From Candidatus Micrarchaeia archaeon (lineage in GTDB: Archaea > Micrarchaeota > Micrarchaeia > Anstonellales > J096): a DNA stretch of 12,688 nucleotides. This document shows, piece after piece, positions 2-11,948 of the stretch. The stretch covers positions 1-12,688 of the forward strand of contig JBGQMY010000026.1 of assembly GCA_041500865.1 (NCBI GenBank), given 5' to 3'. The position numbers and the translations under genes are program-made. Within the stretch, counting starts at the first letter, position 1. Every line of letters begins with the position of its first letter. The notes beneath the pieces are model-generated. The model was not told the origin of the DNA and searched no databases. It saw only the letters and a list, made by a program, of their open reading frames with translations.

Positions 2-604
2 GTTGTCCTTTGCCTCGATGTTTGCGCCTTTTTCAAGCAATAAAGCGCAGGTTGGGGTATGCCCGCGCACTGCGGCCCACATGAGCGCAGTCCAGCCGTT
101 ATTATTCTTTACCTCGATGCTTGCGCCTTTTTCAAGCAATAAAGCGCAGGTTGGGGTGCGTCCGTACCATGCGGCATACATGAGCGCTGTCCTGCCGAGG
201 TTGTCCTTTGCCTCGATATTTGCGCCTTTTTCAAGCAGTAAAGCGCAGGTTGGGATGCGTCCGTTCCATGCGGCATGCATGAGCGCGGTCATGCCGGCGT
301 TGTCCTTTGCATCGATATTTGCGCCTTTTTCGAGCAGTAAAGCGCAGGTTGGGGTGCGTCCGTTCGCTGCGGCATACATGAGCGCAGTCCTACCGTCGTT
401 GTCCTTTGCCTCGATGCTTGCGCCAACCTTCAGCAGTCTCTCCGCTCTTTTTGTTTTGCCTGTTTTGGCAGCATCCAATAGCATATCATTGAGCCTCTTC
501 TGTTCTTCTTCGGATAATATCCTCTTTCCGCTCTTTATAATATCAGCTTTGAGATTAGCTGGTTTGGTTGCCGGCACATTGCCCTGAATTTTCCTTTCCT
601 GCAT
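2..604 (-). CDS. Ankyrin repeat protein (ANK-1), 3' end truncated by window edge
   Basis: Not in the ORF track because it runs off the edge. Manual minus-strand translation from ATG at 604: MQERKIQGNVPATKPANLKADIIKSGKRILSEEEQKRLNDMLLDAAKTGKTKRAERLLKVGASIEAKDNDGRTALMYAAANGRTPTCALLLEKGANIDAKDNAGMTALMHAAWNGRIPTCALLLEKGA..., an N-cap plus at least 4 canonical 33-aa repeats, open to position 2. Confidence 0.95.
   Translation of the reverse strand, partial: MQERKIQGNVPATKPANLKADIIKSGKRILSEEEQKRLNDMLLDAAKTGKTKRAERLLKVGASIEAKDNDGRTALMYAAANGRTPTCALLLEKGANIDAKDNAGMTALMHAAWNGRIPTCALLLEKGANIEAKDNLGRTALMYAAWYGRTPTCALLLEKGASIEVKNNNGWTALMWAAVRGHTPTCALLLEKGANIEAKDN
8..403 (-). repeat. Four tandem 99-bp ankyrin-coding repeats (403-305, 304-206, 205-107, 106-8); a fifth begins at 7
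   Basis: The block 'tgcgcctttttcRagcaRtaaagcgcaggttggg' recurs at an exact 99-nt period. Confidence 0.95.
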
Positions 605-633
605 GGCTTTATTGTGAATAAAAGGGGTTAAAA
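605..633 (-). promoter_or_regulatory. Putative TATA box plus CACAAT element for ANK-1 (leaderless-type spacing)
   Basis: Minus strand reads TTTTAA(633-628)-N11-CACAAT(616-611)-N6-ATG(604), the same spacing as upstream of four other ankyrin genes. Confidence 0.65.
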
Positions 634-658
634 GCACAACCATTCACATATGTGGATC

Positions 659-892
659 ATGGCCAAGGAAAAAATGAAGGTGTGCATTTTCGTAACGGCC
701 TCAACGCTAAAAGACCAGACATCCAGCCTGCCCGAAGCATGCAGGAAAAAGGGGTGCCTGGGCATCTTCAAGATTGACGAAGACCCCAAATGCAGGCTTT
801 TCATGGACAAGAAAGAGCTCAAGATAAGGCATGCCAGGGCAATGCGCAAGATACGGCAGCGGGATAAAGCTGCAAAAAAAGATAACGTTTAA
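659..892 (+). CDS. Small basic hypothetical protein with four Cys
   Basis: ORF fills the gap between two ankyrin genes. ATG 659 lies about 25 nt after TTAAAA (628-633); an alternative ATG is at 650. Pattern C-x18-C-x4-C-x11-C with a K/R-rich tail; no family recognised. Confidence 0.55.
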   Translation: MAKEKMKVCIFVTASTLKDQTSSLPEACRKKGCLGIFKIDEDPKCRLFMDKKELKIRHARAMRKIRQRDKAAKKDNV

Positions 893-916
893 ATCAGTTC
901 CTTATATGGCAGTTTC

Positions 917-1375
917 ATGGCAGGCAAAACACCGGCAAAAATGAAAATGGGCAAAGAAAAGCAGATGGAGCTGGACGAGGCCCTTTTGGCGGCAGCCAGC
1001 GAAGGCAGAACTGCGGATGCCAAAAAACTGATTGGCTCAGGCGCGGATGCCAATGCCAAAGATGGCGAAAAGTGGAGCGCGCTCATGTACGCTGCGTCAA
1101 ACGGGCATACCGATACGTGTGCTCTGCTGATTGAAAAAGGCGCGGATGTTGAAGCAAAGAACGAAACCGGCAAGACTGCCTTGATGTATGCAGCGGCAGA
1201 AGGCCATACAAAGACATGCGAATTATTGGTGGAAAATGGCACAAAAACAGGGGAAAGGAGCATCTGCGACATGACCGCGCTCATGTTTGCGGAATCAGGC
1301 AACAAGGCGGAAACTGCGGCATTCCTGAGGTCAGTGGAGGCCGGAACAGGACCAAGCAAAAAACGCAAAAAGTAG
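917..1375 (+). CDS. Ankyrin repeat protein (ANK-2)
   Basis: SALMYAASNGHTDTCALLIEKGADVEAK and GKTALMYAAAEGHTKTCELLVENG repeats. TTTAAA at 888-893 lies 23 nt before the ATG. Ends GPSKKRKK. Confidence 0.93.
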   Translation: MAGKTPAKMKMGKEKQMELDEALLAAASEGRTADAKKLIGSGADANAKDGEKWSALMYAASNGHTDTCALLIEKGADVEAKNETGKTALMYAAAEGHTKTCELLVENGTKTGERSICDMTALMFAESGNKAETAAFLRSVEAGTGPSKKRKK

Positions 1376-1422
1376 CGCAGGCAACGGCAACATTATTAAA
1401 GCATAAGAGGGAACTATCCAGC

Positions 1423-2283
1423 ATGAGGCTTAAGGAAATCGTGTTCATAGGCGTCGGCGGGGGAAGGACCGCAGTTATAAGGCAGTATAAGGACTTCGGG
1501 ACCGGCGGGTTCAGGATAAACGGGGATTTGAACATCTACGTGGACCCTGGCCCTGGCGCCGCAGTTTACTCCTCGCAGCTTGGCCAAAGCCTGGAAAACA
1601 TAGACATCCTGATAATCAGCCACAACCACCTTGACCACATGGGCGACGCGGAAGTGCTTGCAGAGGCCATGAACGGGTTCGGTTTTGAGAAGAAGGGCAT
1701 GCTGATAGCGTCTGACGCCTGCATAAACGGGCCGAAGGGGGACAGGGCGGACAGGGCGATGGACTCATACCACATGAAGATGTTCAAGGAAATAATGATA
1801 GGCAAGCCCGGGGAAAAGAAAAAAATAACAAAGAACGGGAAGTCCTTCGAGATTGAGTTCACTCCTACGAAGCACGAGGACCCGAGCGGCTTCGGGTTCG
1901 TCATCAGGGCGGAAAACGCGTCGATAGGCTACACGTCCGACACAGAATACATGAAGGGCCTGGAATCGCATTTCATGGGCGTGGACGTGCTTATACTCAA
2001 CGCAATAAAGATGCGCCACAAGGACAGCCTATACAAAGGCCACATGGCGGTCTTCCCGGACGCGGAAAATATCATAAAGGCAATAAGGCCGGACATTTCC
2101 GTATTAAACCACCTTGGCCACGAGATAATAAAGGAAGGCAGGATGGATGAGCTCAGGTTTGAGATGAACTCGAAAACCGGCGAACAGGTCATGATACCGC
2201 GGCAGGGCTACAAGGTAAACCTGTCCAACCCGCTGATGTTCCCAAAGAAATTCAAATTGCTGAAAGGGAGGAAAGGCCAATAG
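1423..2283 (+). CDS. MBL-fold metallo-hydrolase (archaeal PhnP/RNase Z-like group)
   Basis: Motifs FIGVGGGR, YVDPGPG, SHNHLDH (HxHxDH), TKHED, GYTSDT, GH and NH. Start moved from 1216 to ATG 1423, which follows TTATTAAA (1393-1400) and avoids overlap with ANK-2. Confidence 0.88.
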   Translation: MRLKEIVFIGVGGGRTAVIRQYKDFGTGGFRINGDLNIYVDPGPGAAVYSSQLGQSLENIDILIISHNHLDHMGDAEVLAEAMNGFGFEKKGMLIASDACINGPKGDRADRAMDSYHMKMFKEIMIGKPGEKKKITKNGKSFEIEFTPTKHEDPSGFGFVIRAENASIGYTSDTEYMKGLESHFMGVDVLILNAIKMRHKDSLYKGHMAVFPDAENIIKAIRPDISVLNHLGHEIIKEGRMDELRFEMNSKTGEQVMIPRQGYKVNLSNPLMFPKKFKLLKGRKGQ

Positions 2284-2285
2284 CT

Positions 2286-2314
2286 TTTTAGCACCTTTTG
2301 CGCATAATAGACGC
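2286..2314 (+). promoter_or_regulatory. Putative TATA box plus CATAAT element for ANK-3
   Basis: TTTTAG(2286-2291)-N11-CATAAT(2303-2308)-N6-ATG(2315). Confidence 0.55.
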
Positions 2315-3040
2315 ATGGCTCTGAAAGCGGGGGAATCAAAACTCTCCAAAGGCATGCGCAGGATAAGGGAGTTATTCCACAAGCCCAAATCCGAAAAGGC
2401 AAAGAGGATAAGCGGCTTGGAGCAGGCCAAGCTCAATATCAGCCTTTATTATGCAGTGCGAGGCAACGAACCAGATGAAATCCGCAGGCTGATTAAGGCA
2501 GGCGCGGATGTTGGCGCAACCTGGGAATCGGAGGTGCCGCTGCTGGCACATGCGGCATTCCTTGGCAATGCCGAATCCTGCAAAGCGCTCATAGAGGGCG
2601 GGGCTGACGCCAATGCAAAGGATAAGGTCGGCAGAACCATGCTGATGTATGCAGTACAAAAGGAAAGTTTCGGAATCTGCGCGTTGCTGGTTGAAAAAGG
2701 GGCGGATGTCAATATAAGGGACAAGGAAGGCATTAGCGCATTGCAGGAGGCGGCCGTCAGGAACGAACCAGATATATGCAAGCTGCTTATACTACATGGG
2801 GCAGACGCCAGTTCCGTCATTAAGGCATTAGATAACTTATACTATAACTGGCATTCCATGAAGGGGAATGGGGTGTGGGTTGGCCGTGCGGAACAAACCA
2901 AGAAATTTCTCGTAACTGCGCTTGATTTGGCAGGTTTTTTCGTTGGCGGCGTGGATTCGTTGCGCCACAGCCCGCGCAAGGCAGACAAGGGATACTCGCT
3001 TTTCATGGAAAGCTTTAATCTATGCATCTCGGGAAAATGA
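2315..3040 (+). CDS. Ankyrin repeat protein (ANK-3)
   Basis: About 4 repeats (LIKAGADV, LIEGGADANAKDKVGRTMLMYA, LVEKGADVNIRDKEGISALQEAA, LILHGAD), a basic N-terminal leader, and C-terminus FMESFNLCISGK. Confidence 0.92.
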   Translation: MALKAGESKLSKGMRRIRELFHKPKSEKAKRISGLEQAKLNISLYYAVRGNEPDEIRRLIKAGADVGATWESEVPLLAHAAFLGNAESCKALIEGGADANAKDKVGRTMLMYAVQKESFGICALLVEKGADVNIRDKEGISALQEAAVRNEPDICKLLILHGADASSVIKALDNLYYNWHSMKGNGVWVGRAEQTKKFLVTALDLAGFFVGGVDSLRHSPRKADKGYSLFMESFNLCISGK

Positions 3041-3045
3041 AAAAA

Positions 3046-3882
3046 TCAGGGCGCATCCTTGATTAGGTAAAGCAGCACGTATGCCGAGGCGAAGTTTATG
3101 GCGAAGCCGCCGACCATCGCGAGCAGCGTCATGATGTATCCTATGCATGGAATCAGGCTCAATACCATCACCGCAACCATGAAGGCGGCGGAGATGACGA
3201 ACATCACCAGCATGTAAGCCAGTATGTCCCATATCTTTGACCGCGCAAACGCGATGGAATAGAACAGGCTGCCGACCAGTCCCCTGTCAAGCCTCTGCCT
3301 TGAGAATACGTACGGGATGTATAGCATTGTCAGAAGCGAAACCGCAACCATGACAGCAAAGAAAACGACTATTGCAACCAATGCCATGATTGCAAACAAG
3401 ATGGATGAAAGGGCCTTGCCTGCAAGCAGGTAGATGGCATAGCCGATGCCGCCCAGCACCAGGCATAGCAGGACCAGTATAAGGAGCGAAACCACCCCAA
3501 CGAGGATGTTCGCAAGGAACAAACGCACGTATTTGTCCTTGACAGAGGCTATATAATCGCCTAAGCCGACCTCCCTGCCCTCCAGGGATGCCTTTGCATA
3601 CAGCATGTTGGCGACCGTCTGGAGCGGGGCTGAAAACACAGCGACCAGTATTATGAAGCCGTACATCAACGCCATCGCGCCAACCATGCCTGAAAGGTTT
3701 CCGCCTGTGGCCGCGCCTGCGGCAGCGAAAGAGGCAAAGAAGAACGCAAAATAGCACGCCATGAATATTGCCAGGAACGCGATGGAAATCGCAAAGTTCC
3801 ATAGCGCGCTGTATATGAAGTTGCGGGGCCTCTCCCTTATGGTCATAAACGCCTGCCGTATGACCTGAATCATGTCTGCCAT
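3046..3882 (-). CDS. Polytopic membrane protein of unknown function (about 6 TM helices)
   Basis: Long hydrophobic segments throughout, including a C-terminal 'LSLIPCIGYI' hairpin common in uncharacterised integral membrane proteins. Start placed at ATG 3882 (AGGAG upstream; about 23 nt from the TATA at 3905-3912); alternatives are 3897 and 3873. Confidence 0.8.
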   Translation of the reverse strand: MADMIQVIRQAFMTIRERPRNFIYSALWNFAISIAFLAIFMACYFAFFFASFAAAGAATGGNLSGMVGAMALMYGFIILVAVFSAPLQTVANMLYAKASLEGREVGLGDYIASVKDKYVRLFLANILVGVVSLLILVLLCLVLGGIGYAIYLLAGKALSSILFAIMALVAIVVFFAVMVAVSLLTMLYIPYVFSRQRLDRGLVGSLFYSIAFARSKIWDILAYMLVMFVISAAFMVAVMVLSLIPCIGYIMTLLAMVGGFAINFASAYVLLYLIKDAP

Positions 3883-3903
3883 GCGCTCCTGTTGCATGCG
3901 ACG

Positions 3904-3913
3904 GTTTTAAAAC
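3904..3913. promoter_or_regulatory. Palindromic TATA box GTTTTAAAAC between divergent genes
   Basis: Perfect 10-bp palindrome centred between ATG 3882 (-) and ATG 3936 (+), each about 22-23 nt from the TTTTAAAA core. Confidence 0.6.
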
Positions 3914-3935
3914 GTTCTGTGACAATTGCGGTCAT

Positions 3936-5459
3936 ATGAAACCAGGATACCACCATTGGGCGTACAGGCTTGCGAACGAGGTCGTTGAGCGGAACCCGGG
4001 CAAGCCGGAATATATTATACTTTCGGGCGCCACTACTTCCGGAACCCCGCATCTGGGCACTGTCTGCGAGTTCCTTTTCCCATATGCGGTGAAGAAGGCG
4101 CTGGATGACGTGGGAAAAAAGGCAAAGATGTATTTTGTCTTGGATATCCTTGATGCCTTTGACAAAATCCCGTCTTCCGTAAGGCAGTACGAAAAGGAGC
4201 TGGCGCCGCACCTTGGCAAGCCGCTGGAAAGCACGCCTGACCCGACCGGCACGGCCCCAAGCCTCGGGGAATACTTTTACCTGCAGATGAAGGATATCAT
4301 GGACAGGATGGGCGTTGAGGCGGAAGTCGTCAAGGCGTCTGGCCTGTACAAAAAAGGCCTTCCAACCCCATATGCGAAGATGGCGCTGGACAGGATTGAG
4401 CTGCTCAAGCAGATAGTCCAGGAGACAAGCGGAAGGGAGCTGAAAAAGGGCTGGACCCCGATAATGCCGATATGCGAACTGTGCGGCAAGGTTGCGACGA
4501 CAAGAGTGACATCCTTTGACAAGGATTATAATTGCGAATATGCCTGCGACGCAAAGCTGGACTACACTGAAGGCTGCGGAAACATTGGAAAGTTCAATTT
4601 GAACGAGCCTACGAAATACAAGATGGTATGGAGGCTGGATTGGCCTGCGCGCCAGGCATACATGGACGCTGACATAGAGGGCGGCGGGGTTGACCACTTC
4701 ACAAAAGGCGGAAGCTGGGACACCGCAGTCGCAATCCACAAAAAAATGTTCCAAAGGGAGCCTCCGGTAGGATTCAAATACGGCTTTGTGCTGCTTGAAG
4801 GGAAAAAGTTCAGCAAAAGCAAGGGCAACGGCATGTCCATGCCGGAAATGATAAGGCTCATACCGCCCAAGGTGATTGCATACCATCTGCTGAAGTTTGA
4901 CCTTGAGGAGAACATCAACTTCGACCCGCAGAAGGAAAGCATACTCGCGATAATAGAGGATTACGAGGCAGCAAGCAAAATAAGCGGAAATCCGGAAGAT
5001 ATGGGCAAGGCCGAAGTAAAAAAATATTTCGCGTATAAATTGGCGGGAAAGCGGGAGTGGGACTGCCTGTTCAGGGATGCGCTGATGTATTACCAGATAT
5101 CGAAGGACTGGAAAACTGTCGTTTCGCACTACGGCATAAGCGAAAGCGACGCAAGGGCGATTGCCCCATATGTTGAGGAATGGATAGCAAAGGGGTTCGT
5201 GCCTGACGATTACGACTTCAGCTATAAACCAACAAAGGCAGAAGGCGCCGCAAGGGAGTTCTTTGAAGCGCTGGACGCGTCCAAGGACGCTGAGGGCATC
5301 CACAACGCCATATACGACTTTGCCAAGTCAAGGGGCATGCCAGGCGGCGAGCTTTTCAGGGCGCTATACAAGGCCATGCTCGGCAAGGAAAGGGGCCCAA
5401 GGCTTGGAAAACTGGTTTACGCGATAGGCGCGGAAAAGGTGAAGGGGGATGTCCTTTGA
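3936..5459 (+). CDS. lysS: Lysine--tRNA ligase, class I
   Basis: HIGH-like SGTPHLGT, KMSKS-like KFSKSKG, Zn-knuckle PICELCGK...C...CG, WRLDWPARQ, EGGGVDH, and C-terminal anticodon domain LGKERGPRLG; 507 aa. Confidence 0.97.
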   Translation: MKPGYHHWAYRLANEVVERNPGKPEYIILSGATTSGTPHLGTVCEFLFPYAVKKALDDVGKKAKMYFVLDILDAFDKIPSSVRQYEKELAPHLGKPLESTPDPTGTAPSLGEYFYLQMKDIMDRMGVEAEVVKASGLYKKGLPTPYAKMALDRIELLKQIVQETSGRELKKGWTPIMPICELCGKVATTRVTSFDKDYNCEYACDAKLDYTEGCGNIGKFNLNEPTKYKMVWRLDWPARQAYMDADIEGGGVDHFTKGGSWDTAVAIHKKMFQREPPVGFKYGFVLLEGKKFSKSKGNGMSMPEMIRLIPPKVIAYHLLKFDLEENINFDPQKESILAIIEDYEAASKISGNPEDMGKAEVKKYFAYKLAGKREWDCLFRDALMYYQISKDWKTVVSHYGISESDARAIAPYVEEWIAKGFVPDDYDFSYKPTKAEGAAREFFEALDASKDAEGIHNAIYDFAKSRGMPGGELFRALYKAMLGKERGPRLGKLVYAIGAEKVKGDVL

Positions 5460-6049
5460 CAAAGATAGTGAAGATTGCCGAGAACTGGGACATTGCGTTT
5501 GACGAATGCGTGAAGGCCGTAAAGGCAGGGAAGCTGATTGTCTATCCAACCGACACCGTTTACGGCATAGGCGGAAACGCGCTTGACAAGGATGTTTTTG
5601 ACAATGTATGCGCGGCCAAGAGGCGCCCTGCATTTAATGCCGTTTCAGTAATGATACCTAACCTTGAGATGCTGCTGAAATATTTTGATGCCGGAGACGA
5701 AGAGCTGGATTACATAACAGCCAGCCTGCCTGGGCCGTTCACGTTCATCCTCAAGGCCAAGGCGCCGATGCCTGTCCAAAGCGCAAACGGAACCGTTGGC
5801 GTGAGGATACCGAACCACATCTTCATGAGGAAGGTGTGCTACGAGTCAAACGTTCCTATAATAACGACGTCAGCCAATCTCCACGGCCAGCCTGCGCCCG
5901 TACGCTTTTCAGACATACCGAAGGAGATGCTGGATGCGGCAGAAGTCGCAGTTGACGGCGGCGAGACCATGCTGAAGGGGCCGTCAACAGTCGTCAACAT
6001 AAGGGAAAGGAAGATTGAGAGAAAGGGCGTTGCGGACTTCTTGTTTTGA
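5456..6049 (+). CDS. tsaC: L-threonylcarbamoyladenylate synthase (TsaC/YrdC, Sua5/YciO/YrdC family, single domain)
   Basis: YPTDTVYGIG, KRRP, LPGPFTFIL, VGVRIP, TTSANLHG and PSTVV motifs. The TTG start overlaps the lysS stop (TTGA). Confidence 0.93.
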   Translation: MTKIVKIAENWDIAFDECVKAVKAGKLIVYPTDTVYGIGGNALDKDVFDNVCAAKRRPAFNAVSVMIPNLEMLLKYFDAGDEELDYITASLPGPFTFILKAKAPMPVQSANGTVGVRIPNHIFMRKVCYESNVPIITTSANLHGQPAPVRFSDIPKEMLDAAEVAVDGGETMLKGPSTVVNIRERKIERKGVADFLF

Positions 6050-6052
6050 GCG

Positions 6053-6496
6053 TCAAAGGTTGCGCCTTATCAGCCCGGATATTGAAATCAATTCCTTCTG
6101 CGGCGTAGGCTCCCTGCTTCCGGGCCTGTAAAGGAATTTTCTTGGCTCGTATCTTGTTATGCCCGCATCCCCCTTTTTCCTCGGAATCATGTGGATATGC
6201 AGGTGCCTCACGTTCTGGCCTGCGGATTTTCCCTCGTTCCATGCGTAGTTGAATCCGGTTGCGCCGAGCGATTTCCTCATTGCCGGTTCCAGCCTTTCCA
6301 TTATGCCAAGCATCGCCTCAAGCTCGTCCTTCCTAAGGCCCCATATTGTCGAGACCTTTCTTTTTGGGCAGATGAGGATGTGGCCCGGCACTATCGGGAT
6401 GTTGCTGGGAAATGCGAAAGCAAGGCCATTGTCCATTATGAGCCTTTCCCTTATCTCCTTCCTCCTTGCGCTGAAATACAGGGTTTGCCTTTTCAT
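6053..6496 (-). CDS. HIT family hydrolase
   Basis: PIVPGHILICPKR, GFNYAWNEGKSAGQNV and histidine triad HLHIHMIPR. ATGA overlap with the upstream signal peptidase stop. Confidence 0.93.
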   Translation of the reverse strand: MKRQTLYFSARRKEIRERLIMDNGLAFAFPSNIPIVPGHILICPKRKVSTIWGLRKDELEAMLGIMERLEPAMRKSLGATGFNYAWNEGKSAGQNVRHLHIHMIPRKKGDAGITRYEPRKFLYRPGSREPTPQKELISISGLIRRNL

Positions 6497-7470
6497 TTTA
6501 TCAGCTTTGTCCCGCAGATTGCGTCTTCCGTCACATACCCGACCAGGAAGAGCTTGTAGTATCCGAGATACGGAATCCTGAAAAGGACCCTTCCCCTTAC
6601 CTGGTCCGGGCTGGTGGGTGTGTTGAACATGCCGCCGATTGCGTTCGAATAGAACTGGATGTCAAAAATTTCGTTGTTGTCGCCTTTTGTAAGCAGGTAA
6701 GTGGCGTTTCCTGCGATGACCTTCACGACCGACCTGTGGACGATGTCGCCGGAAAGCGAAAACAGGTCATTTTGCTTCGGCGCATAGACGACGGTGTCGC
6801 TTGACCTGTCGCCCTGGACGCTGACTGTCTGGTTTTTGTATGACACCGAAACAGTGCAAGGCTCTGTGAAAAGCACGTCAGAGCTTGACGTGCTTGCCCT
6901 GTAGCATCTGCCGTAGGTGAAGGCAAACGGCCCCCTGCGCTCAATGAACAGTTCCGGATTATTGTAAAACAGGCTGCATGTTGGCGTGTCGTTCACGTTC
7001 TGGCAATAGCTGAACATGGAGCCATTGACCTCCATCGCCTTGTTGCTGAACGCCACGATGGGATTGCGGAACAGCGCCTGCGCGTCAGCCGGGCTTGCGG
7101 TTATCTCGTTTCCTATGTAGTTAGTCTCGCCTTTCACTATTATCATGTCGCCCCTGTTCAGCTCAGGGACCATTGAGCATGAAACGACTGCGCTTATGGG
7201 CGTTGGGGTTGAAAGCACGGCCTGCAATGCGAACCATGCGACAAGCGCGGCTATCACCGTGACTGCTATGTCCCACAGCTCGCTCTTCCACCCGTTGTTC
7301 CTTATGCCTTCTGAAAGCTCCAGCAGCACCATGGCCACAATTGCCAGCGCGGTCAGCAGCCCGAAAAACGGGCTCTTGGTGATTAGATAAAGCAAAAGCA
7401 GCGCAACTGCCACGCCTAACTGGAAATAGGAGTTCTGCAGGAGCAGCCTCTGTCTCTCATCCAGGAACAT
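6493..7470 (-). CDS. Signal peptidase I, archaeal/ER type (S26B, Sec11-like), with large internal insertion
   Basis: N-terminal TM helices; box B VVSCSMVPELNRGD, box D DIVHR, box E LTKGDNN; C-terminal GRVLFRIPYLGY. Confidence 0.9.
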   Translation of the reverse strand: MFLDERQRLLLQNSYFQLGVAVALLLLYLITKSPFFGLLTALAIVAMVLLELSEGIRNNGWKSELWDIAVTVIAALVAWFALQAVLSTPTPISAVVSCSMVPELNRGDMIIVKGETNYIGNEITASPADAQALFRNPIVAFSNKAMEVNGSMFSYCQNVNDTPTCSLFYNNPELFIERRGPFAFTYGRCYRASTSSSDVLFTEPCTVSVSYKNQTVSVQGDRSSDTVVYAPKQNDLFSLSGDIVHRSVVKVIAGNATYLLTKGDNNEIFDIQFYSNAIGGMFNTPTSPDQVRGRVLFRIPYLGYYKLFLVGYVTEDAICGTKLIK

Positions 7471-7471
7471 C

Positions 7472-7750
7472 TCATTCAGCTTTCTTCACTGCTTCCTTGA
7501 GCGAGCCGATGTCCTTCCTTATGTCGTCTATCGCATCCAGGAGCGCGGCCATCGCCTTGTGCTCCCCGGACGTCCTCAACACGACCTTGGGATAGCTCGC
7601 AAGCGGATGCTCCCAGTTGTACCCGGCGAACTCCACGTCGTCCCTCTGGTTGAGGTAATGGACCAGCATCTCCGGAACCGTGGGGTCTTTCCTCTTTATG
7701 AGCAGTTCAATCTCGTTCTTAGTGCTGCTGACGATACTTATCTCCATCAT
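7472..7750 (-). CDS. rpoL: DNA-directed RNA polymerase subunit L (Rpo11)
   Basis: About 92 aa, MEISIVSSTKNEIEL...DDVEFAGYNWEHPL...KVVLRT followed by a C-terminal helix. SD-like AAGGTGG directly upstream of ATG 7750 (alternative ATG 7747). Confidence 0.9.
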   Translation of the reverse strand: MMEISIVSSTKNEIELLIKRKDPTVPEMLVHYLNQRDDVEFAGYNWEHPLASYPKVVLRTSGEHKAMAALLDAIDDIRKDIGSLKEAVKKAE

Positions 7751-7783
7751 TTCCACCTTTCCAGATTGGAGTGATATGGAAGT

Positions 7784-7793
7784 GTTTATAAAC
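7784..7793. promoter_or_regulatory. Palindromic TATA box GTTTATAAAC between divergent rpoL and DUF373 genes
   Basis: TTTATAAA at 7785-7792 lies within TGTTTATAAACA, 22 nt before GTG 7815 (+) and 34 nt from the rpoL ATG (-). Confidence 0.65.
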
Positions 7794-7814
7794 ATTTTAG
7801 GTCAAAACCGGATT

Positions 7815-9068
7815 GTGAAGAAGTTAATCATCGTAATAGACATAGATGACGACCTTGGCAAGAAGGGAAAGGTGGCCGGGCCCGTCATAGGCAGGGAGGA
7901 GAACCTCAACTCCGCAATCAGCCTTGCCATAGCAGACCCGGAGGACCCGGATTCCAACGTCATATTCAAGGCGATTTCCGTATACGACAGGATGAAAAAG
8001 GATAACGAGGACGTTGAGATTGTAACCCTTACGGGGGACCAAAAGCTGGGAATAACGGCAACATCCAAGATATCCAGGCAGCTGGACAGGGTGCTTGCCG
8101 ACCTTCCGGCCTCGTCGTGCTTTCTCATAACGGATGGCGCCAGCGACGAGAGCGTGCTTCCGGTCATCCAGTCAAGGCTGAAGGTTGACGGCATACACAA
8201 CATCTACATAAAGCAGGCCAGGGAGCTGGAGAAGACGTATTTCGTGATAATAGAGAAGCTGAGGGACCCGACCTACGCAAAGATACTGCTCGGCGGCCCT
8301 GCGCTGATTCTCCTGGCCATATCATTGATGTACCTGCTGAACCTGCCGTGGCAGCTGATGGGGGCCCTGCTGGGAATGGTTCTTTTGATATACGGCTTCG
8401 GGCTCCACCATTACATGGACAAGATAGCCCGCTCCATAGAGATAAAGAAGAACAGGTCGTTGAACAATGTGGTATGGATAATACTGTCCATATTGATCAT
8501 AATAGGCATAATGGCGGCCAGCGCAGCGGTCACACAGGCGCAGGGCCTCGGGTTCAGGGGCATAGAGGTCTGGGCCTATGTCGGGGACGTTGTTCTGAAC
8601 ATACTGCTGTTCATGGCGCTGATGGTGTCCCTTGCCAAGTTTGTTGACGCATACTTCAGGAAAAGCGGCATAAACCAGATAGCGGCAGTCAACTTCATCG
8701 TGAAATTCATTGCCGTATTCCTCGTTGCGAAGATAGGCGCGCAATGGATAATGAACAGCCCTTCGGGAATCCTGGGCCTCCAGTATGTCTCGTTCGGCAA
8801 CTTCATAGAGACTAGCCTTGCGATAATGGTGGCGTCGTACATAATAACGAAGTACCTTGACAGCATAAAGACCGACATGCTGATAACGTCCATAGAAAGC
8901 GGGGGCAACGTGATGTCGGAGGACGGGAGCATGATGGGCTCAACGGTCGGGGTCGACCCGAAGGAGCAGGTCATAAAGGTCAAGACCCAGCTCAACAGGA
9001 TAACCAAGATTCCCATAGACAAGGTAATATCCATTTCGCCCAACAACGACATTATAGTGGAAGATTAG
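7815..9068 (+). CDS. DUF373 family archaeal membrane protein with extra C-terminal beta-rich domain
   Basis: KKLIIVIDIDDDLGKK...GPVIGRE...LAIADPEDPDSN...ITDGASDESVLPVIQSR...KQARELEKTY followed by about 6 TM helices. Start reassigned to GTG 7815 on family N-terminus and TATA spacing. Confidence 0.9.
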   Translation: MKKLIIVIDIDDDLGKKGKVAGPVIGREENLNSAISLAIADPEDPDSNVIFKAISVYDRMKKDNEDVEIVTLTGDQKLGITATSKISRQLDRVLADLPASSCFLITDGASDESVLPVIQSRLKVDGIHNIYIKQARELEKTYFVIIEKLRDPTYAKILLGGPALILLAISLMYLLNLPWQLMGALLGMVLLIYGFGLHHYMDKIARSIEIKKNRSLNNVVWIILSILIIIGIMAASAAVTQAQGLGFRGIEVWAYVGDVVLNILLFMALMVSLAKFVDAYFRKSGINQIAAVNFIVKFIAVFLVAKIGAQWIMNSPSGILGLQYVSFGNFIETSLAIMVASYIITKYLDSIKTDMLITSIESGGNVMSEDGSMMGSTVGVDPKEQVIKVKTQLNRITKIPIDKVISISPNNDIIVED

Positions 9069-9081
9069 GCAGCCAATAGCG

Positions 9082-9110
9082 TTTTAATCTGTTTGCCGCA
9101 CAATAAAGGC
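9082..9110 (+). promoter_or_regulatory. Putative TATA box plus CACAAT element for ANK-4
   Basis: TTTTAA(9082-9087)-N11-CACAAT(9099-9104)-N6-ATG(9111). Confidence 0.65.
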
Positions 9111-9926
9111 ATGGAAGAGCGCAGGACGTTCCGCGAAAGGGCAAAGGGTGCTGCAAAGGCATCAGCCAAATTTCTGAAAAAGCTTAGCCCAGAGCGCGCC
9201 ATGTCCAGACTAAGGCTGAACATGGAACTTGACAAAGCCCTGTCTGCTATAGATAAAAACACGAACACAAACTGGCTCAAGAATATAATGGAGCTTGTCC
9301 AGAAAGGCGCAAACCCAAACCTGCAGACCATGGACGGATATACTCCATTGTTCTCGGCTGTAAAGGAGGGCAATGCCGAGGCATGCGCATTTCTCATTGG
9401 AAAGGGAGCGGATGTCAGCGCAGCGAACAAGCACGGCAGGACAGCATTGCACGCTGCTGCACGCTGGGGACGCACTGAAATCTGTGTCTTGATTATAAGG
9501 GAATATGCAAAGGCAGGCCGGAACGTAACTAACCTTATCGCCGCAAAGGACGGAATCAACGAGACACCTCTGCACGATGCCGCAAGCAAAGGGAATGCCG
9601 AAACCTGCGCGCTGCTGATAAAAGAATATTCAAAGGCAGGCGGAGACGCGGATAAACTCGTCGCCGCAAAGAACGATTACAAAAATATGGCCCTGCACCT
9701 TGCCGCATCCAATGGGCATACTAAAACCTGCGCGCTGCTGATAGAAAAAGGCTCCGATATCGCCGCAAAGGGCGATAAAGGCAGGACAGCCGAGGATTTT
9801 GCCTTTTTTGCCGAAGGCAAAACCACCATGCATTTCCTCATTTTAATCAAAAAGCTTAGCGCAGCCATGGGAAAAGAGGCGTTCAGCTCGTTCATGAAAT
9901 CATTCGGCGACTGCGTTGCAGGATGA
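9111..9926 (+). CDS. Ankyrin repeat protein (ANK-4)
   Basis: GYTPLFSAV, GRTALHAAARWG, ETPLHDAASKG and MALHLAASNGH repeats, two of them 41 aa long. Ends FMKSFGDCVAG. Start set to ATG 9111 from the shared upstream motif. Confidence 0.94.
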   Translation: MEERRTFRERAKGAAKASAKFLKKLSPERAMSRLRLNMELDKALSAIDKNTNTNWLKNIMELVQKGANPNLQTMDGYTPLFSAVKEGNAEACAFLIGKGADVSAANKHGRTALHAAARWGRTEICVLIIREYAKAGRNVTNLIAAKDGINETPLHDAASKGNAETCALLIKEYSKAGGDADKLVAAKNDYKNMALHLAASNGHTKTCALLIEKGSDIAAKGDKGRTAEDFAFFAEGKTTMHFLILIKKLSAAMGKEAFSSFMKSFGDCVAG

Positions 9927-9931
9927 TGACT

Positions 9932-9960
9932 TTTTAATCTCTTTTATGCACAATGGAGCC
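9932..9960 (+). promoter_or_regulatory. Putative TATA box plus CACAAT element for ANK-5
   Basis: TTTTAA(9932-9937)-N11-CACAAT(9949-9954)-N6-ATG(9961). Confidence 0.65.
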
Positions 9961-10416
9961 ATGCAGAAAAGGGAGCTTCAAAAGAATGCGCAGGCAAAGG
10001 CGCCAGCTAAGCTAAACGCGGGCGCAATGCCAAGCGAAAAGCCACCGCTATCAGAAGAAAAGCAGAAACAGCTCAATGGCATGCTGTTGGATGCCGCTGA
10101 AAACGGCAAAACAAAAAGAGCGGAAAGATTGTTAAAAGTTGGCGCAAGCATCGAGGCAAAGGACAATGACGGCTGGACCCCGCTCATGTGGGCCGCATGG
10201 AACGGACGCACCCCAACCTGCGCCTTGCTGCTTTCAAAAGGCGCAGATGTGAACGCGAAGGCTGGAAAAGGGGATTGGAAGGGCATGACTGCGTCCTCAA
10301 TCGCCGAAAAGGGCAACAAAAAGAAAACGGCTGCATTCCTCAAGACCATGGAATGGCTTGCCGGTATAACTGGAAATGCGTTTATGAAACCGTTCGCGGA
10401 ATGCATTGCAGGATGA
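9961..10416 (+). CDS. Ankyrin repeat protein (ANK-5), short paralog of ANK-1
   Basis: MQKRELQ...MLLDAAENGKTKRAERLLKVGASIEAKDNDGWTPLMWAAWNGRTPTCALLLSKGADVNAK...FMKPFAECIAG. Start ATG 9961 aligns with the ANK-1 start. Confidence 0.94.
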   Translation: MQKRELQKNAQAKAPAKLNAGAMPSEKPPLSEEKQKQLNGMLLDAAENGKTKRAERLLKVGASIEAKDNDGWTPLMWAAWNGRTPTCALLLSKGADVNAKAGKGDWKGMTASSIAEKGNKKKTAAFLKTMEWLAGITGNAFMKPFAECIAG

Positions 10417-10417
10417 T

Positions 10418-10446
10418 TTTTAACACCTTCGCCGCACAATAAGGGC
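10418..10446 (+). promoter_or_regulatory. Putative TATA box plus CACAAT element for ANK-6
   Basis: TTTTAA(10418-10423)-N11-CACAAT(10435-10440)-N6-ATG(10447). Confidence 0.65.
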
Positions 10447-10476
10447 ATGTAGGAAAGGAAGCCGCTCCTAAGGCGG

Positions 10477-11097
10477 ATGATGGAAAAGAGAAGAGTAAGG
10501 ATACGTGAGGCATTCGCCAAGGCAAGGAGAATTCTATTCCACAAAATGGATTCGGAGAAGCTGGCATTATCCTCAGAAGAGCAGAAGCGGCTCAACGATG
10601 CGCTCCTCAATGCAGCATGGCATGGCAACAACGCGGAATTAGTGAGGCTCATCAAGGCCGGTGCGGATATTTCCGCAAAGAACAGCGAAGGTTGGGGGGA
10701 TGCATTGACGGTCTTATGGGAAGCCATAGACAGAGGATACAACCAAACCTGCGCCCTGATTATAGAGGAATATGCAAAGGCCGGCGGAAACATAAAGAGA
10801 TTCATCAGCGTAAAGAGCTATGAGAACTGGACAGTCCTGCACCTTGCCGCATCCAATGGACGCACCCAGACCTGCATCCTGCTCATAGAGGAATATGTAA
10901 AATCAGGCGGGAACGCAAATAAACTAATTTCCGCAAAGAACAATGACGGCAAGACCGCGACAATGATTGCCGAAGCAAAACACAAAAAAGAGACAGCTGC
11001 ATTCCTCACGTTCGCGCCTTTTGCGCCAAGGATTTTCGCGGACAGGGAACTGTCCAGTTCATTCTATTCAAGCTTCAATGAATGCATCAGCCAATAG
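10477..11097 (+). CDS. Ankyrin repeat protein (ANK-6); ancestral start probably ATG 10447, now followed by in-frame TAG (possible recent pseudogene)
   Basis: LLNAAWHGNNAELVRLIKAGADISAK, WTVLHLAASNGRTQTC and GKTATMIA repeats; ends FYSSFNECISQ. In-frame ATG-TAG at 10447-10452. Confidence 0.88.
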   Translation: MMEKRRVRIREAFAKARRILFHKMDSEKLALSSEEQKRLNDALLNAAWHGNNAELVRLIKAGADISAKNSEGWGDALTVLWEAIDRGYNQTCALIIEEYAKAGGNIKRFISVKSYENWTVLHLAASNGRTQTCILLIEEYVKSGGNANKLISAKNNDGKTATMIAEAKHKKETAAFLTFAPFAPRIFADRELSSSFYSSFNECISQ

Positions 11098-11115
11098 CAA
11101 AATAGGGGTGGAAAC

Positions 11116-11319
11116 ATGGAAAGGCCTGATATCGGAAAGCCGGCTTTGGGGCCGGGGACGCAGATGCGGCTCGTCGCAAGGACGCAAAGCATAGAAGAAG
11201 CGAACCGCATAGCCGAGCAGTATGAATCAGAGGGCTATGAAACCCAGGTAATGAAGAAGAGGCAGGGCATCCTCGCCATATATGAGGTATGGGCAGGCAA
11301 AAGCGAAACCAGGGCCTGA
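11116..11319 (+). CDS. Small hypothetical protein, possibly SPOR-like/ferredoxin-like fold
   Basis: Strong SD GGGGTGG upstream and ORF fills the intergenic gap. Pattern SIEEANRIAEQYESEGYETQV...YEVWAG recalls the SPOR beta-alpha-beta-beta pattern (weak). Confidence 0.7.
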   Translation: MERPDIGKPALGPGTQMRLVARTQSIEEANRIAEQYESEGYETQVMKKRQGILAIYEVWAGKSETRA

Positions 11320-11335
11320 AGGAGCTGAAAAAACA

Positions 11336-11342
11336 TTTATAA
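11336..11342 (+). promoter_or_regulatory. Putative TATA box for cupredoxin gene pair
   Basis: TTTATAA 22 nt before ATG 11365, preceded by an A-rich BRE-like stretch. Confidence 0.55.
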
Positions 11343-11364
11343 TACTTCGGTTTCATACACATTC

Positions 11365-11718
11365 ATGAAAGAGGTCATCGTACTGCTTGTTCTTGGAATC
11401 CTGCTTGCCGGATGCGCGCAGCAGTCTGCAAACGCCCCTTCGCCGAATATATCAAACCAAACCTTGGTTAGTGCGGCAAACGCAACAGTCCACATAAAGG
11501 GCTTCGCGTTCAACCCTGCGGAGATAACAATCAACAAGGGGGACACAGTCCTGTGGGTGAATGACGACGGCGCGCCGCACCTTGTGAAGTTCGCGGACTT
11601 CCAGTCAGGGACGCTCAGCACAGGCGATTCCTATGGGCACACGTTCAGCGCGGCCGGGGAATATGCATATTCCTGCGGCATCCACCCGTCAATGAAGGGC
11701 AAGGTGACTGTAAAGTGA
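11365..11718 (+). CDS. Cupredoxin (plastocyanin/azurin/halocyanin-like) type 1 copper lipoprotein
   Basis: Lipobox LLAGC; FAFNPAEITINKGDTVLWVN; ligands His (APH) and C-x2-H-x2-M (YSCGIHPSMKG). Confidence 0.93.
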   Translation: MKEVIVLLVLGILLAGCAQQSANAPSPNISNQTLVSAANATVHIKGFAFNPAEITINKGDTVLWVNDDGAPHLVKFADFQSGTLSTGDSYGHTFSAAGEYAYSCGIHPSMKGKVTVK

Positions 11719-11948
11719 CTGTAAGGGACTTCGCATATGGCCTTTTGCTGGGAAAACCGATAGTTGTCTGGCTAGGAATACTGGCGCTCATGCTATTGCT
11801 CAGCGCCGCAGCCGTCATGTTCCTGACATTGCATGCAAGGAAGAAAATACCGTTCGGATGGCACAAGCGGTTCGCGGTTGCTGGGATAATAGTTGCGCTT
11901 ATACACATGGTGCTGGCGCTCTCGGCATACGTGGAACTGGGAATATGA
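11715..11948 (+). CDS. Small two-TM membrane protein with H-x13-H helix (possible heme b-binding)
   Basis: GTGA overlap with the cupredoxin stop; two hydrophobic helices; WHKRFAVAGIIVALIHM. Confidence 0.75.
   Translation: MTVRDFAYGLLLGKPIVVWLGILALMLLLSAAAVMFLTLHARKKIPFGWHKRFAVAGIIVALIHMVLALSAYVELGI

Follow-up and report, generated by a model that had tools for sequence, protein, structure and literature searches.

A large family of dispersed ankyrin genes with constant ends in a Micrarchaeota genome, a candidate binder repertoire

Ankyrin expansions have been described in bacteria such as Babela, Wolbachia, Orientia, Legionella, and Coxiella, which combine a very high count in a small genome with short repeat proteins that contain little else. 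Babela massiliensis, with 126 ankyrin proteins, held the bacterial record as of 2015 (PMC4378268), and in the consulted sections of a published survey, bacterial ankyrin load follows host association (PMC3932732). The same sections list any ankyrin protein in 15 of 133 archaeal strains and more than one in four species, and Undinarchaeota are described without ankyrins in the consulted part of their report (PMC7414124). Here we describe an archaeal family that was recognized from a 12,688-nucleotide contig (C26, hereafter the window) of a Micrarchaeota assembly (G000; 36 contigs, 1,043,478 bases, completeness 92%, contamination 0.17%). The G000 family resembles the bacterial expansions in count and protein make-up. 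It differs in that it is archaeal, that 116 of 120 members lack a signal-like stretch, that it carries a genus-specific promoter, basic leader, and Cys-containing helix, and that no eukaryotic host is known. Ankyrin expansion as such is known from bacteria; what is new here is the archaeal setting, the family's own tags, and the repeated separate origins. No description of ankyrin expansions in Micrarchaeota was found in the mostly open-access literature consulted, supplements excluded. The word 'ankyrin' is absent from the main text, as far as consulted, of one study whose annotation tables could list these genes (PMC12892359).

A second likeness is to designed ankyrin repeat proteins (DARPins), which share the order of cap, few consensus-like repeats, and cap, and are the top Foldseek match of one window protein. 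The G000 family differs from DARPins in being natural, diversified by recombination and selection, and equipped with extra constant tags.

Size and anatomy of the ankyrin family

A repeat profile seeded with the window repeats was iterated over all stop-to-stop open reading frames (ORFs) of G000 and returned at least 120 ankyrin ORFs with 480 repeats, fragments at contig ends being additional; several contigs break off within look-alike copies. Set beside 925 other genes from our own codon-model caller, which is rough and makes the denominator approximate, ankyrins make up about 11.5% of genes and 7% of DNA. In the congener G002 the same profile found 60 ankyrin ORFs in the 878 kb searched (48 of about 60 contigs), and in the congener G001 at least 93 PF12796 matches were found among 96 candidates scored. 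The original prediction had proposed a genome-wide expansion, which 120 ankyrin ORFs in 1.04 Mb bear out.

The typical unit is self-contained, with a promoter, a basic leader, few repeats, and an amphipathic Cys helix. The promoter sits about 30 nt ahead of the ATG. Its strict expression matches 54 of 115 called ankyrin starts in G000, and 56 of its 68 genome-wide hits lie at ankyrin starts, about half of the other 12 being relics or contig-end copies. Median net charge over the first 30 residues is +5 in 98 ankyrin genes, against 0 in 790 other genes. At the opposite end, an F-x2-4-F-x-x-C tail closes 86 of the 120 ORFs, and its hydrophobic positions cluster on a single helix face. Codon use varies among 119 tails selected on the F-F-C motif: each F is encoded by either Phe codon, and the serine-rich positions draw on both Ser codon families. 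A tail profile built from 38 tails matches only G000 and G002 among 301 phylum genomes, a sample that did not list G001, and has 213 matches among 1.84 billion protein representatives; among 150 matches listed, 120 end in the tail, comprising 116 ankyrins and 4 short fragments. The tail was found only in this genus, in line with the lineage-specificity that had been predicted. No family for the tail came from Pfam (38 tails) or the ESM Atlas.

Not all copies belong to one class. A simple hydropathy screen found hydrophobic signal-like starts in 4 of the 120 ankyrins, two of them lipoprotein-like, and ANK2 of the window is resident-like. The family modules also occur elsewhere: at C12:25008 and C13:22664-23533 of G000 a promoter plus leader-like start stands on a methyltransferase and a leader on another domain, and at C13:15921-16919 the Cys tail closes a 333-aa protein without a Pfam match. 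Separately, C11:21395-32391 and C35 carry a tandem family of 7 genes plus 1-2 paralogues of about 525 aa, most ending in ...DIYNIGCA[KAR], with no Pfam match in the two tested and no hit in the searched part of G002.

The window features are as follows.

2-604, minus strand: ANK1, with leader, N-cap, and near-identical repeats; runs off the contig end
605-633, minus strand: cassette promoter of ANK1 (TATA-like TTTTAA ... CACAAT), a promoter pattern match
917-1375, plus strand: ANK2, with a short leader, without CACAAT promoter and without Cys tail
2286-2314, plus strand: cassette promoter of ANK3, directly behind the stop codon of the metallo-beta-lactamase-fold (MBL) gene
2315-3040, plus strand: ANK3, tail ending ...FNLCISGK
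9070-9080, plus strand: 11-bp copy of the ANK6 3' end; with the second copy at 11088-11098 it flanks the ANK4-6 block
9082-9110, plus strand: cassette promoter of ANK4, a promoter pattern match
9111-9926, plus strand: ANK4, tail ending ...FGDCVAG
9932-9960, plus strand: cassette promoter of ANK5, a promoter pattern match
9961-10416, plus strand: ANK5, predicted to have a leader (1-31) without secondary structure, an ankyrin core, and helices at 121-137 and 142-150; ends ...FAECIAG
10418-10446, plus strand: cassette promoter of ANK6, a promoter pattern match
10477-11097, plus strand: ANK6, read from the next in-frame ATG; tail ending ...FNECISQ

All six predicted ankyrin genes, at four separate sites, exceed the Pfam ankyrin cut-offs (PF00023/PF12796). 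The N-cap described as clearest in ANK1, ANK5, and ANK6 is present as described, and the non-canonical Cys of the repeat signature occupies repeat position 19 in 82% of 136 ungapped repeats. One feature had been generalized too far. A promoter-like element of its own had been ascribed to every gene, and the pattern TTTTA-N8-12-CAYAAT-N5-7-ATG, derived from the same window genes it scored, has five matches in the window, at five of the six ankyrin starts (shuffles mean 0.01; 0 of 200 reach five), with ANK2 lacking the CACAAT promoter; the cassette head is common to five of the genes and not to all six. The Cys tail, ascribed to most genes, closes ANK3-6; ANK2 lacks it, and the end of ANK1 lies beyond the contig. 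The congener G002 has an ankyrin 48% identical to ANK2 at the same position. Because it has this syntenic counterpart and neither CACAAT promoter nor Cys tail, ANK2 is probably an older resident copy outside the cassette class. The ANK3 site is empty in both congeners, and so is the ANK4-6 site in G001; G002 has a different pair of ankyrins there. The ANK6 promoter leads to an ATG (10447) that runs straight into a stop codon, and the next in-frame ATG lies at 10477, which would make ANK6 either a shortened allele or a young pseudogene. The 11-bp repeat may be a relic of a donor neighbour or a crossover scar. Divergent from ANK1, a basic ORF of 77-80 aa with four Cys and no Pfam match lies at 650-892.

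The predicted ANK5 structure (predicted local distance difference test, pLDDT, 88) has a confident ankyrin core of stacked helix-turn-helix fold and a short, less certain tail helix at 142-150. Its top Foldseek matches are DARPins, with a root-mean-square deviation of about 1 Å. The terminal Cys invites comparison with Legionella AnkB, an ankyrin protein with a Cys near its C-terminus that combines F-box, ankyrins, and CaaX in the sections consulted (PMC2916131). The proteins could accordingly act in a eukaryotic (protist) host as effectors with a prenylated CaaX box, a reading we consider very improbable. Among 117 ORFs with a stop codon, 57 have their last Cys at -4. Only 13 of the 932 other called genes do so, several of these being miscalled ankyrin ends, and the ankyrin count equals the level of the amoeba parasite Babela. 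However, the Cys floats, lying at -3 in 20, -5 in 12, and -6 in 4 further ORFs (36 in all), and a2 is Ala, Gly, or Ser in 49 of the 57 and Ile, Val, Leu, or Met in 1, whereas position a2 is buried in farnesyltransferase (PMC3188499, sections consulted). On the floating Cys and small a2, the CaaX reading appears to fit poorly. Moreover, the Cys pattern fits a helix face, the six window proteins contain only ankyrin families and no F-box, the 38 tails share no known family, and other Micrarchaeia expansions lack a terminal Cys. Searches for prenyltransferase PF00432 and ATP/ADP translocase PF03219 gave no matches, their positive controls being equally silent and the result uninformative.

The housekeeping genes around the window ankyrins are, by Pfam, the MBL gene, class I LysS, Sua5, HIT, RpoL, DUF373, cupredoxin, and a KaiC-like ATPase. 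LysS is 46-75% identical to the four relatives returned, all titled Micrarchaeota or Anstonellales, which agrees with the DPANN-like archaeon that had been suggested. The three main public runs holding window sequence are sediment metagenomes, one possibly the source sample, and no RNA run is among the holders listed. In the possible source run (X1), single contigs cover 410-5833 and 7579-10087 with zero differences; in X2, from a different study, contigs join MBL to ANK3, ANK3 to DUF7544, and ANK6 to cupredoxin, also with zero differences. Because these contigs bridge ankyrin and housekeeping genes, the window ankyrins are not a binning artefact. Read depth in X1 is about 8 in general and reaches 93 over ANK1 and 61 over ANK5, since look-alike copies pile up there. 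No clean loss of a window cassette was found at the joints in four public runs; the joints seen fit paralogous junctions. The genes at 3046-3897 (DUF7544) and 6053-6496 (HIT) are missing at these sites in G002, and the small genes and cupredoxin behind ANK6 (11116-11948) are missing there in G001. As these regions vary between congeners, the intergenic sites take up other genes too.

Gain, loss, and diversification of copies

The 120 ankyrin ORFs of G000 fall into 77 loci, 50 of which hold a single gene. Comparison with G002 resolves 42 of these sites, 29 of them empty and 13 filled, and leaves 35 unresolved; in the reverse direction, 6 G002 loci are empty in G000, 12 filled, and 18 unresolved. 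The expectation that cassettes would be absent at the same intergenic sites in sister genomes thus holds for most resolvable sites. Only 3 of the 13 filled loci hold reciprocal best hits. Between the two genomes, 665 housekeeping reciprocal best hits have a median identity of 79%, against 48% for 19 ankyrin pairs, and for 84 of the 120 ankyrins a paralogue from the same genome is the nearer relative. Leader and tail share a nearest neighbour in none of 10 genes with a close relative, and each of the closest 10 repeat pairs is split between different genes. Leaders, repeats, and tails are, judging from these neighbours, shuffled between genes. Units are gained or lost singly at scattered intergenic sites while their modules are reshuffled between genes.

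Inserts carry a TATA box and sometimes a relic of the donor neighbour's tail. Because the untranscribed TATA box and donor-neighbour relics travel with the copy, we infer copying at the DNA level. Ectopic recombination and gene conversion may account for the spread, with no dedicated enzyme involved. Tyrosine recombinase PF00589 was found in none of five genomes (77-94% complete), with positive controls in 14 of 14. Among transposases, PF01797 occurs only as a contig-end fragment in G000, other transposase families not being searched. Inspection by eye of 18 filled/empty junction pairs gave no uniform signal of an attachment (att) site, inverted ends, or target duplication, the congener being diverged. 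With no tyrosine recombinase and no uniform junction, integron- or transposon-like spread was set aside. Insertion targeted to TATA boxes was also set aside: a TATA-like word lies within 5 nt of the stop codon at 10 of 51 ankyrin-to-other-gene junctions, against 21 of 268 control gaps, a modest enrichment with no clear orientation bias. A palindromic GGCGCTGC-type element was tried as cassette end and dismissed, since its 27 fuzzy hits lie beside some cassettes but elsewhere too. Dispersed modular palindromic repeats resembling repetitive extragenic palindromes or miniature inverted-repeat transposable elements occur at G000 C10:22639-22800 and C29:1421-1530 and at G002 L016:3690-3790, often beside ankyrin promoters and also elsewhere.

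Descent from one ancestor, as originally proposed, is for the tailed class compatible with the trees. For a subsample of 45 of 127 tailed and 30 of 45 outgroup segments, forcing the tailed class to be monophyletic gave a tree that outscored the free search by 9.2 log-likelihood units, and the approximately unbiased test did not reject it (p-AU 0.61); the clade itself is not proven. In an earlier tree, built on 242 short segments, a pure genus clade comprised 129 of 197 at a support of 0.78, while the remainder was poorly resolved.

The binding face of the repeats changes faster than its framework. The framework of the closest repeat pairs has a non-synonymous difference (pN) of 0.033 and a synonymous difference (pS) of 0.087, which indicates purifying selection. 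In a separate comparison, repeat pairs were picked on half of the framework codons and differences were measured on the other half. At repeat sites 2, 4, 9, 12, and 13, picked as the most variable, codon positions 1 and 2 then differ by 0.49, against 0.14 at four-fold sites and 0.08 in the framework. This excess is 3.5 times the held-out synonymous sites and was higher in 200 of 200 resamplings. The binder-like diversification that had been suggested is therefore seen at the binding face, where 136 repeats yield 134 distinct strings rich in W, R, and Y. The five sites largely match the positions randomized in DARPin libraries, with one helix-1 site in addition. A diversity-generating retroelement (DGR) was rejected as diversifier: in 18 close repeats the variation extends to every base and to third positions, and because it is not adenine-specific, ankyrins are not DGR targets; the neighbours of DGR-type reverse transcriptases are not ankyrins. 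Such a reverse transcriptase lies at G000 C3:18397-20778 and on G002 C18, beside a gene that resembles typical DGR targets and without a link to ankyrins. A group II intron-type reverse transcriptase is found on G000 C36, a contig of 2.4 kb.

These data bear on the proposal that the proliferation is selfish or neutral, a promoter-bearing repeat gene spreading since repeats recombine easily and most copies doing nothing useful. Scattered gains and losses, relics and frameshifts, low orthology, and a weak orientation bias (25 same, 16 opposite, 3 mixed) would all be expected from it. However, the framework is under purifying selection at the pN and pS given above, the binding face outpaces synonymous sites, and the tail motif is kept in 86 of 120 ORFs with varied codons. 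Neither the missing tyrosine recombinase (0 of 5 genomes, controls 14 of 14) nor a family that fills 7% of a small genome and has counterparts of separate origin and different layout fits it well, and we regard it as distinctly improbable.

Ankyrin expansions and a rare AAA+/vWA cassette in other Micrarchaeia

Cross-genome counts are first-look candidate matches and a rough proxy, and the list for other orders holds only genomes passing a strict E-value. Among 176 genomes of the order, candidates number 218 in G000, 110 in G001, 107 in G002, 79 in G008, 72 in G352, 69 in G083, 55 in G353, 48 in G020, and 31 in G030, and 76 genomes have no ankyrin match. In other orders, G388 has 226, G124 116, and G131 70. 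The constant ends differ between these genomes. The sampled G008 loci have a different leader and a Cys-containing helix, G083 ankyrins a basic constant C-tail, G388 and G131 ankyrins constant N-terminal tags, and G352 and G353 ankyrins signal-like starts. In G124, a single-contig genome, at least 35 ankyrin genes follow one another head to tail at C1:690000-720000, most ending in ...LRTGQEYNAA[KR]HGVSY... Homology of the G008 tail with the genus tail was rejected, the hhalign score of 7.4 lying within the range of 30 column shuffles. Other Micrarchaeia lineages have, as judged from their genes, expanded ankyrins separately, several with their own constant terminal tag. The lineage-specific expansion of the original prediction is supported by the genus-only tail, but ankyrin expansion as such is not unique to this lineage and has arisen separately elsewhere in the class. 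That it did so more than once, and with differing layouts, speaks for selection acting on the repertoire.

Some ankyrin-rich genomes share a rare cassette, which in G000 (C1:67642-75117) consists of a long AAA+ ATPase with two AAA regions, a HExxH/MIDAS giant, two small genes, and a coupled ankyrin; the tandem-AAA+/HExxH-vWA (NorQ/NorD-like) machine occupies C1:67642-74524. The giant has 1,125 residues, no Pfam match, and 7 hits among 8,000 scored candidates. Its MIDAS motif DxSGS is invariant in 13 aligned sequences, with the AAA gene upstream, and NorD is the best fold match of its vWA domain (E 6.6e-5; pLDDT of the whole predicted model 64). The cassette resembles NorQ/NorD-type AAA+-vWA chaperones and MoxR-vWA conflict systems (PMC8195603, sections consulted) in its AAA+ ATPase and MIDAS vWA domain, and differs in the two AAA regions of its long ATPase, the HExxH domain, and the lack of a Pfam match in the giant. 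No published link between ankyrins and these systems was found in the literature consulted, in part as excerpts.

The ankyrins could be intracellular adaptors whose variable repeats pick a substrate and whose constant Cys helix docks on the AAA+/HExxH-vWA machine, which would remodel or cut it, in analogy to F-box or SOCS-box adaptors. The giant is present in 9 of 41 relatives: every one of the 6 that reach 25 PF12796 matches, and 3 of the remaining 35. Across the order, 9 of 176 genomes carry it clearly (4 more have weak distant hits), and 6 of these 9 carriers are among the 9 most ankyrin-rich. An ankyrin gene directly follows it in G000, G020, and G030. Moreover, G083 combines tailed ankyrins with a distant HExxH-vWA protein, the signal-like untailed ankyrins of G352 and G353 come with no match, and the NorD fold match would suit such a machine. 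On the other hand, the co-occurrence test is post hoc on related genomes, with all 9 clear carriers in two families, and the machine occurs in G011, G014, and G016 despite 9, 3, and 0 ankyrin matches. None of five ankyrin-rich genomes of other orders matches the giant, including G124 with its constant tail, although there was no positive control among the five. G002 lacks the coupled G000 ankyrin at the corresponding site, and the G008 and genus tails do not align significantly. We consider the adaptor reading unlikely, if a serious contender. In its widest form, for which the chances seem equally modest, more than 100 recombination-shuffled binders would plug via one Cys helix into a single AAA+/zinc-protease/vWA machine, an immune-like receptor library that would have evolved repeatedly in Micrarchaeia. 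If true, this would be a reprogrammable archaeal way to seize, destroy, or remodel viral, toxin, or host proteins, and a ubiquitin-free counterpart of F-box and SOCS-box adaptors.

Possible roles of the repertoire

The explanation we favour, tentatively, is a genus-specific DARPin-like binder repertoire used in conflict, including delivery to a prokaryotic host. The part of it that concerns a repertoire under selection is likely. For the remainder, the constant ends would act as a routing tag read by one shared machine. At the weakest step, this machine would carry the binders, independently of Sec, to the surface or the interior of the prokaryotic host cell, and there they might block or redirect host proteins. 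Candidates for delivery are a VirB4-like ATPase with VirB2-like pilins, or type IV pilus systems. In G000, VirB4/HerA-like ATPases and a small TrbC/VirB2-like pilin family (below the Pfam cut-off) are found at C1:83633-85216, C5:1-1399, C6:6537-7230, and C29:5974-6804.

Several points weigh against this explanation. The VirB4-like ATPase occurs in 5 of 5 genomes tested, all ankyrin-rich, is 96% identical in G002, and nothing ties it to ankyrins. A signal-like hydrophobic stretch is found in only 4 of 120 ankyrins, against 79 of 126 in Babela (PMC4378268, sections consulted). Outside the ankyrins the tail is all but missing, with one clear case, and such confinement would not be predicted of a general export signal. 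Broken copies are present, as in the ANK6 start, frameshifts, and promoter-tail relics. Each resampling in the selection test drew on about 10 repeat pairs, without independence between resamplings, and a similar pattern could arise from short conversion tracts whose donors are more distant. Function and target are deduced from the genes; symbiosis is itself deduced from the phylum only, and some Micrarchaeota orders are reported, in the sections consulted, to be fairly self-sufficient (PMC12892359).

A related proposal dispenses with delivery. As stand-alone defence, cytoplasmic binders would neutralize incoming toxins or viral proteins, like a dispersed form of Imm-Ank polyimmunity, with the tail as a capping helix or membrane anchor. 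The 116 of 120 members without a signal-like stretch, the promoter carried by most copies, the diversified binding face, and the tail that continues the last repeat as helices in the predicted ANK5 model all suit this role. Imm-Ank/polyimmunity loci are likewise variable sets of cytoplasmic ankyrin genes, and the consulted sections list ankyrins as immunity proteins and describe loci that differ between strains (PMC3482391). However, published polyimmunity loci are mostly single clusters, whereas one family here occupies 77 dispersed sites without toxin genes beside the window copies. By Pfam the window holds no toxin or other immunity family, toxin genes not being searched genome-wide, and the conserved basic leader and invariant Cys are left unexplained. 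Stand-alone defence is in our estimate quite unlikely.

With at least 120 ankyrins, one archaeon rivals the bacterium that held the record in 2015, and comparable expansions arose separately elsewhere in its class. The family offers direct access to the largely open question of how DPANN archaea act on hosts or defend themselves. The constant tag could serve to fish out the machine that recognizes it, and the binders to fish out their targets, which could name the host. The G000 family may also be seen as a natural DARPin library with an unusual framework.

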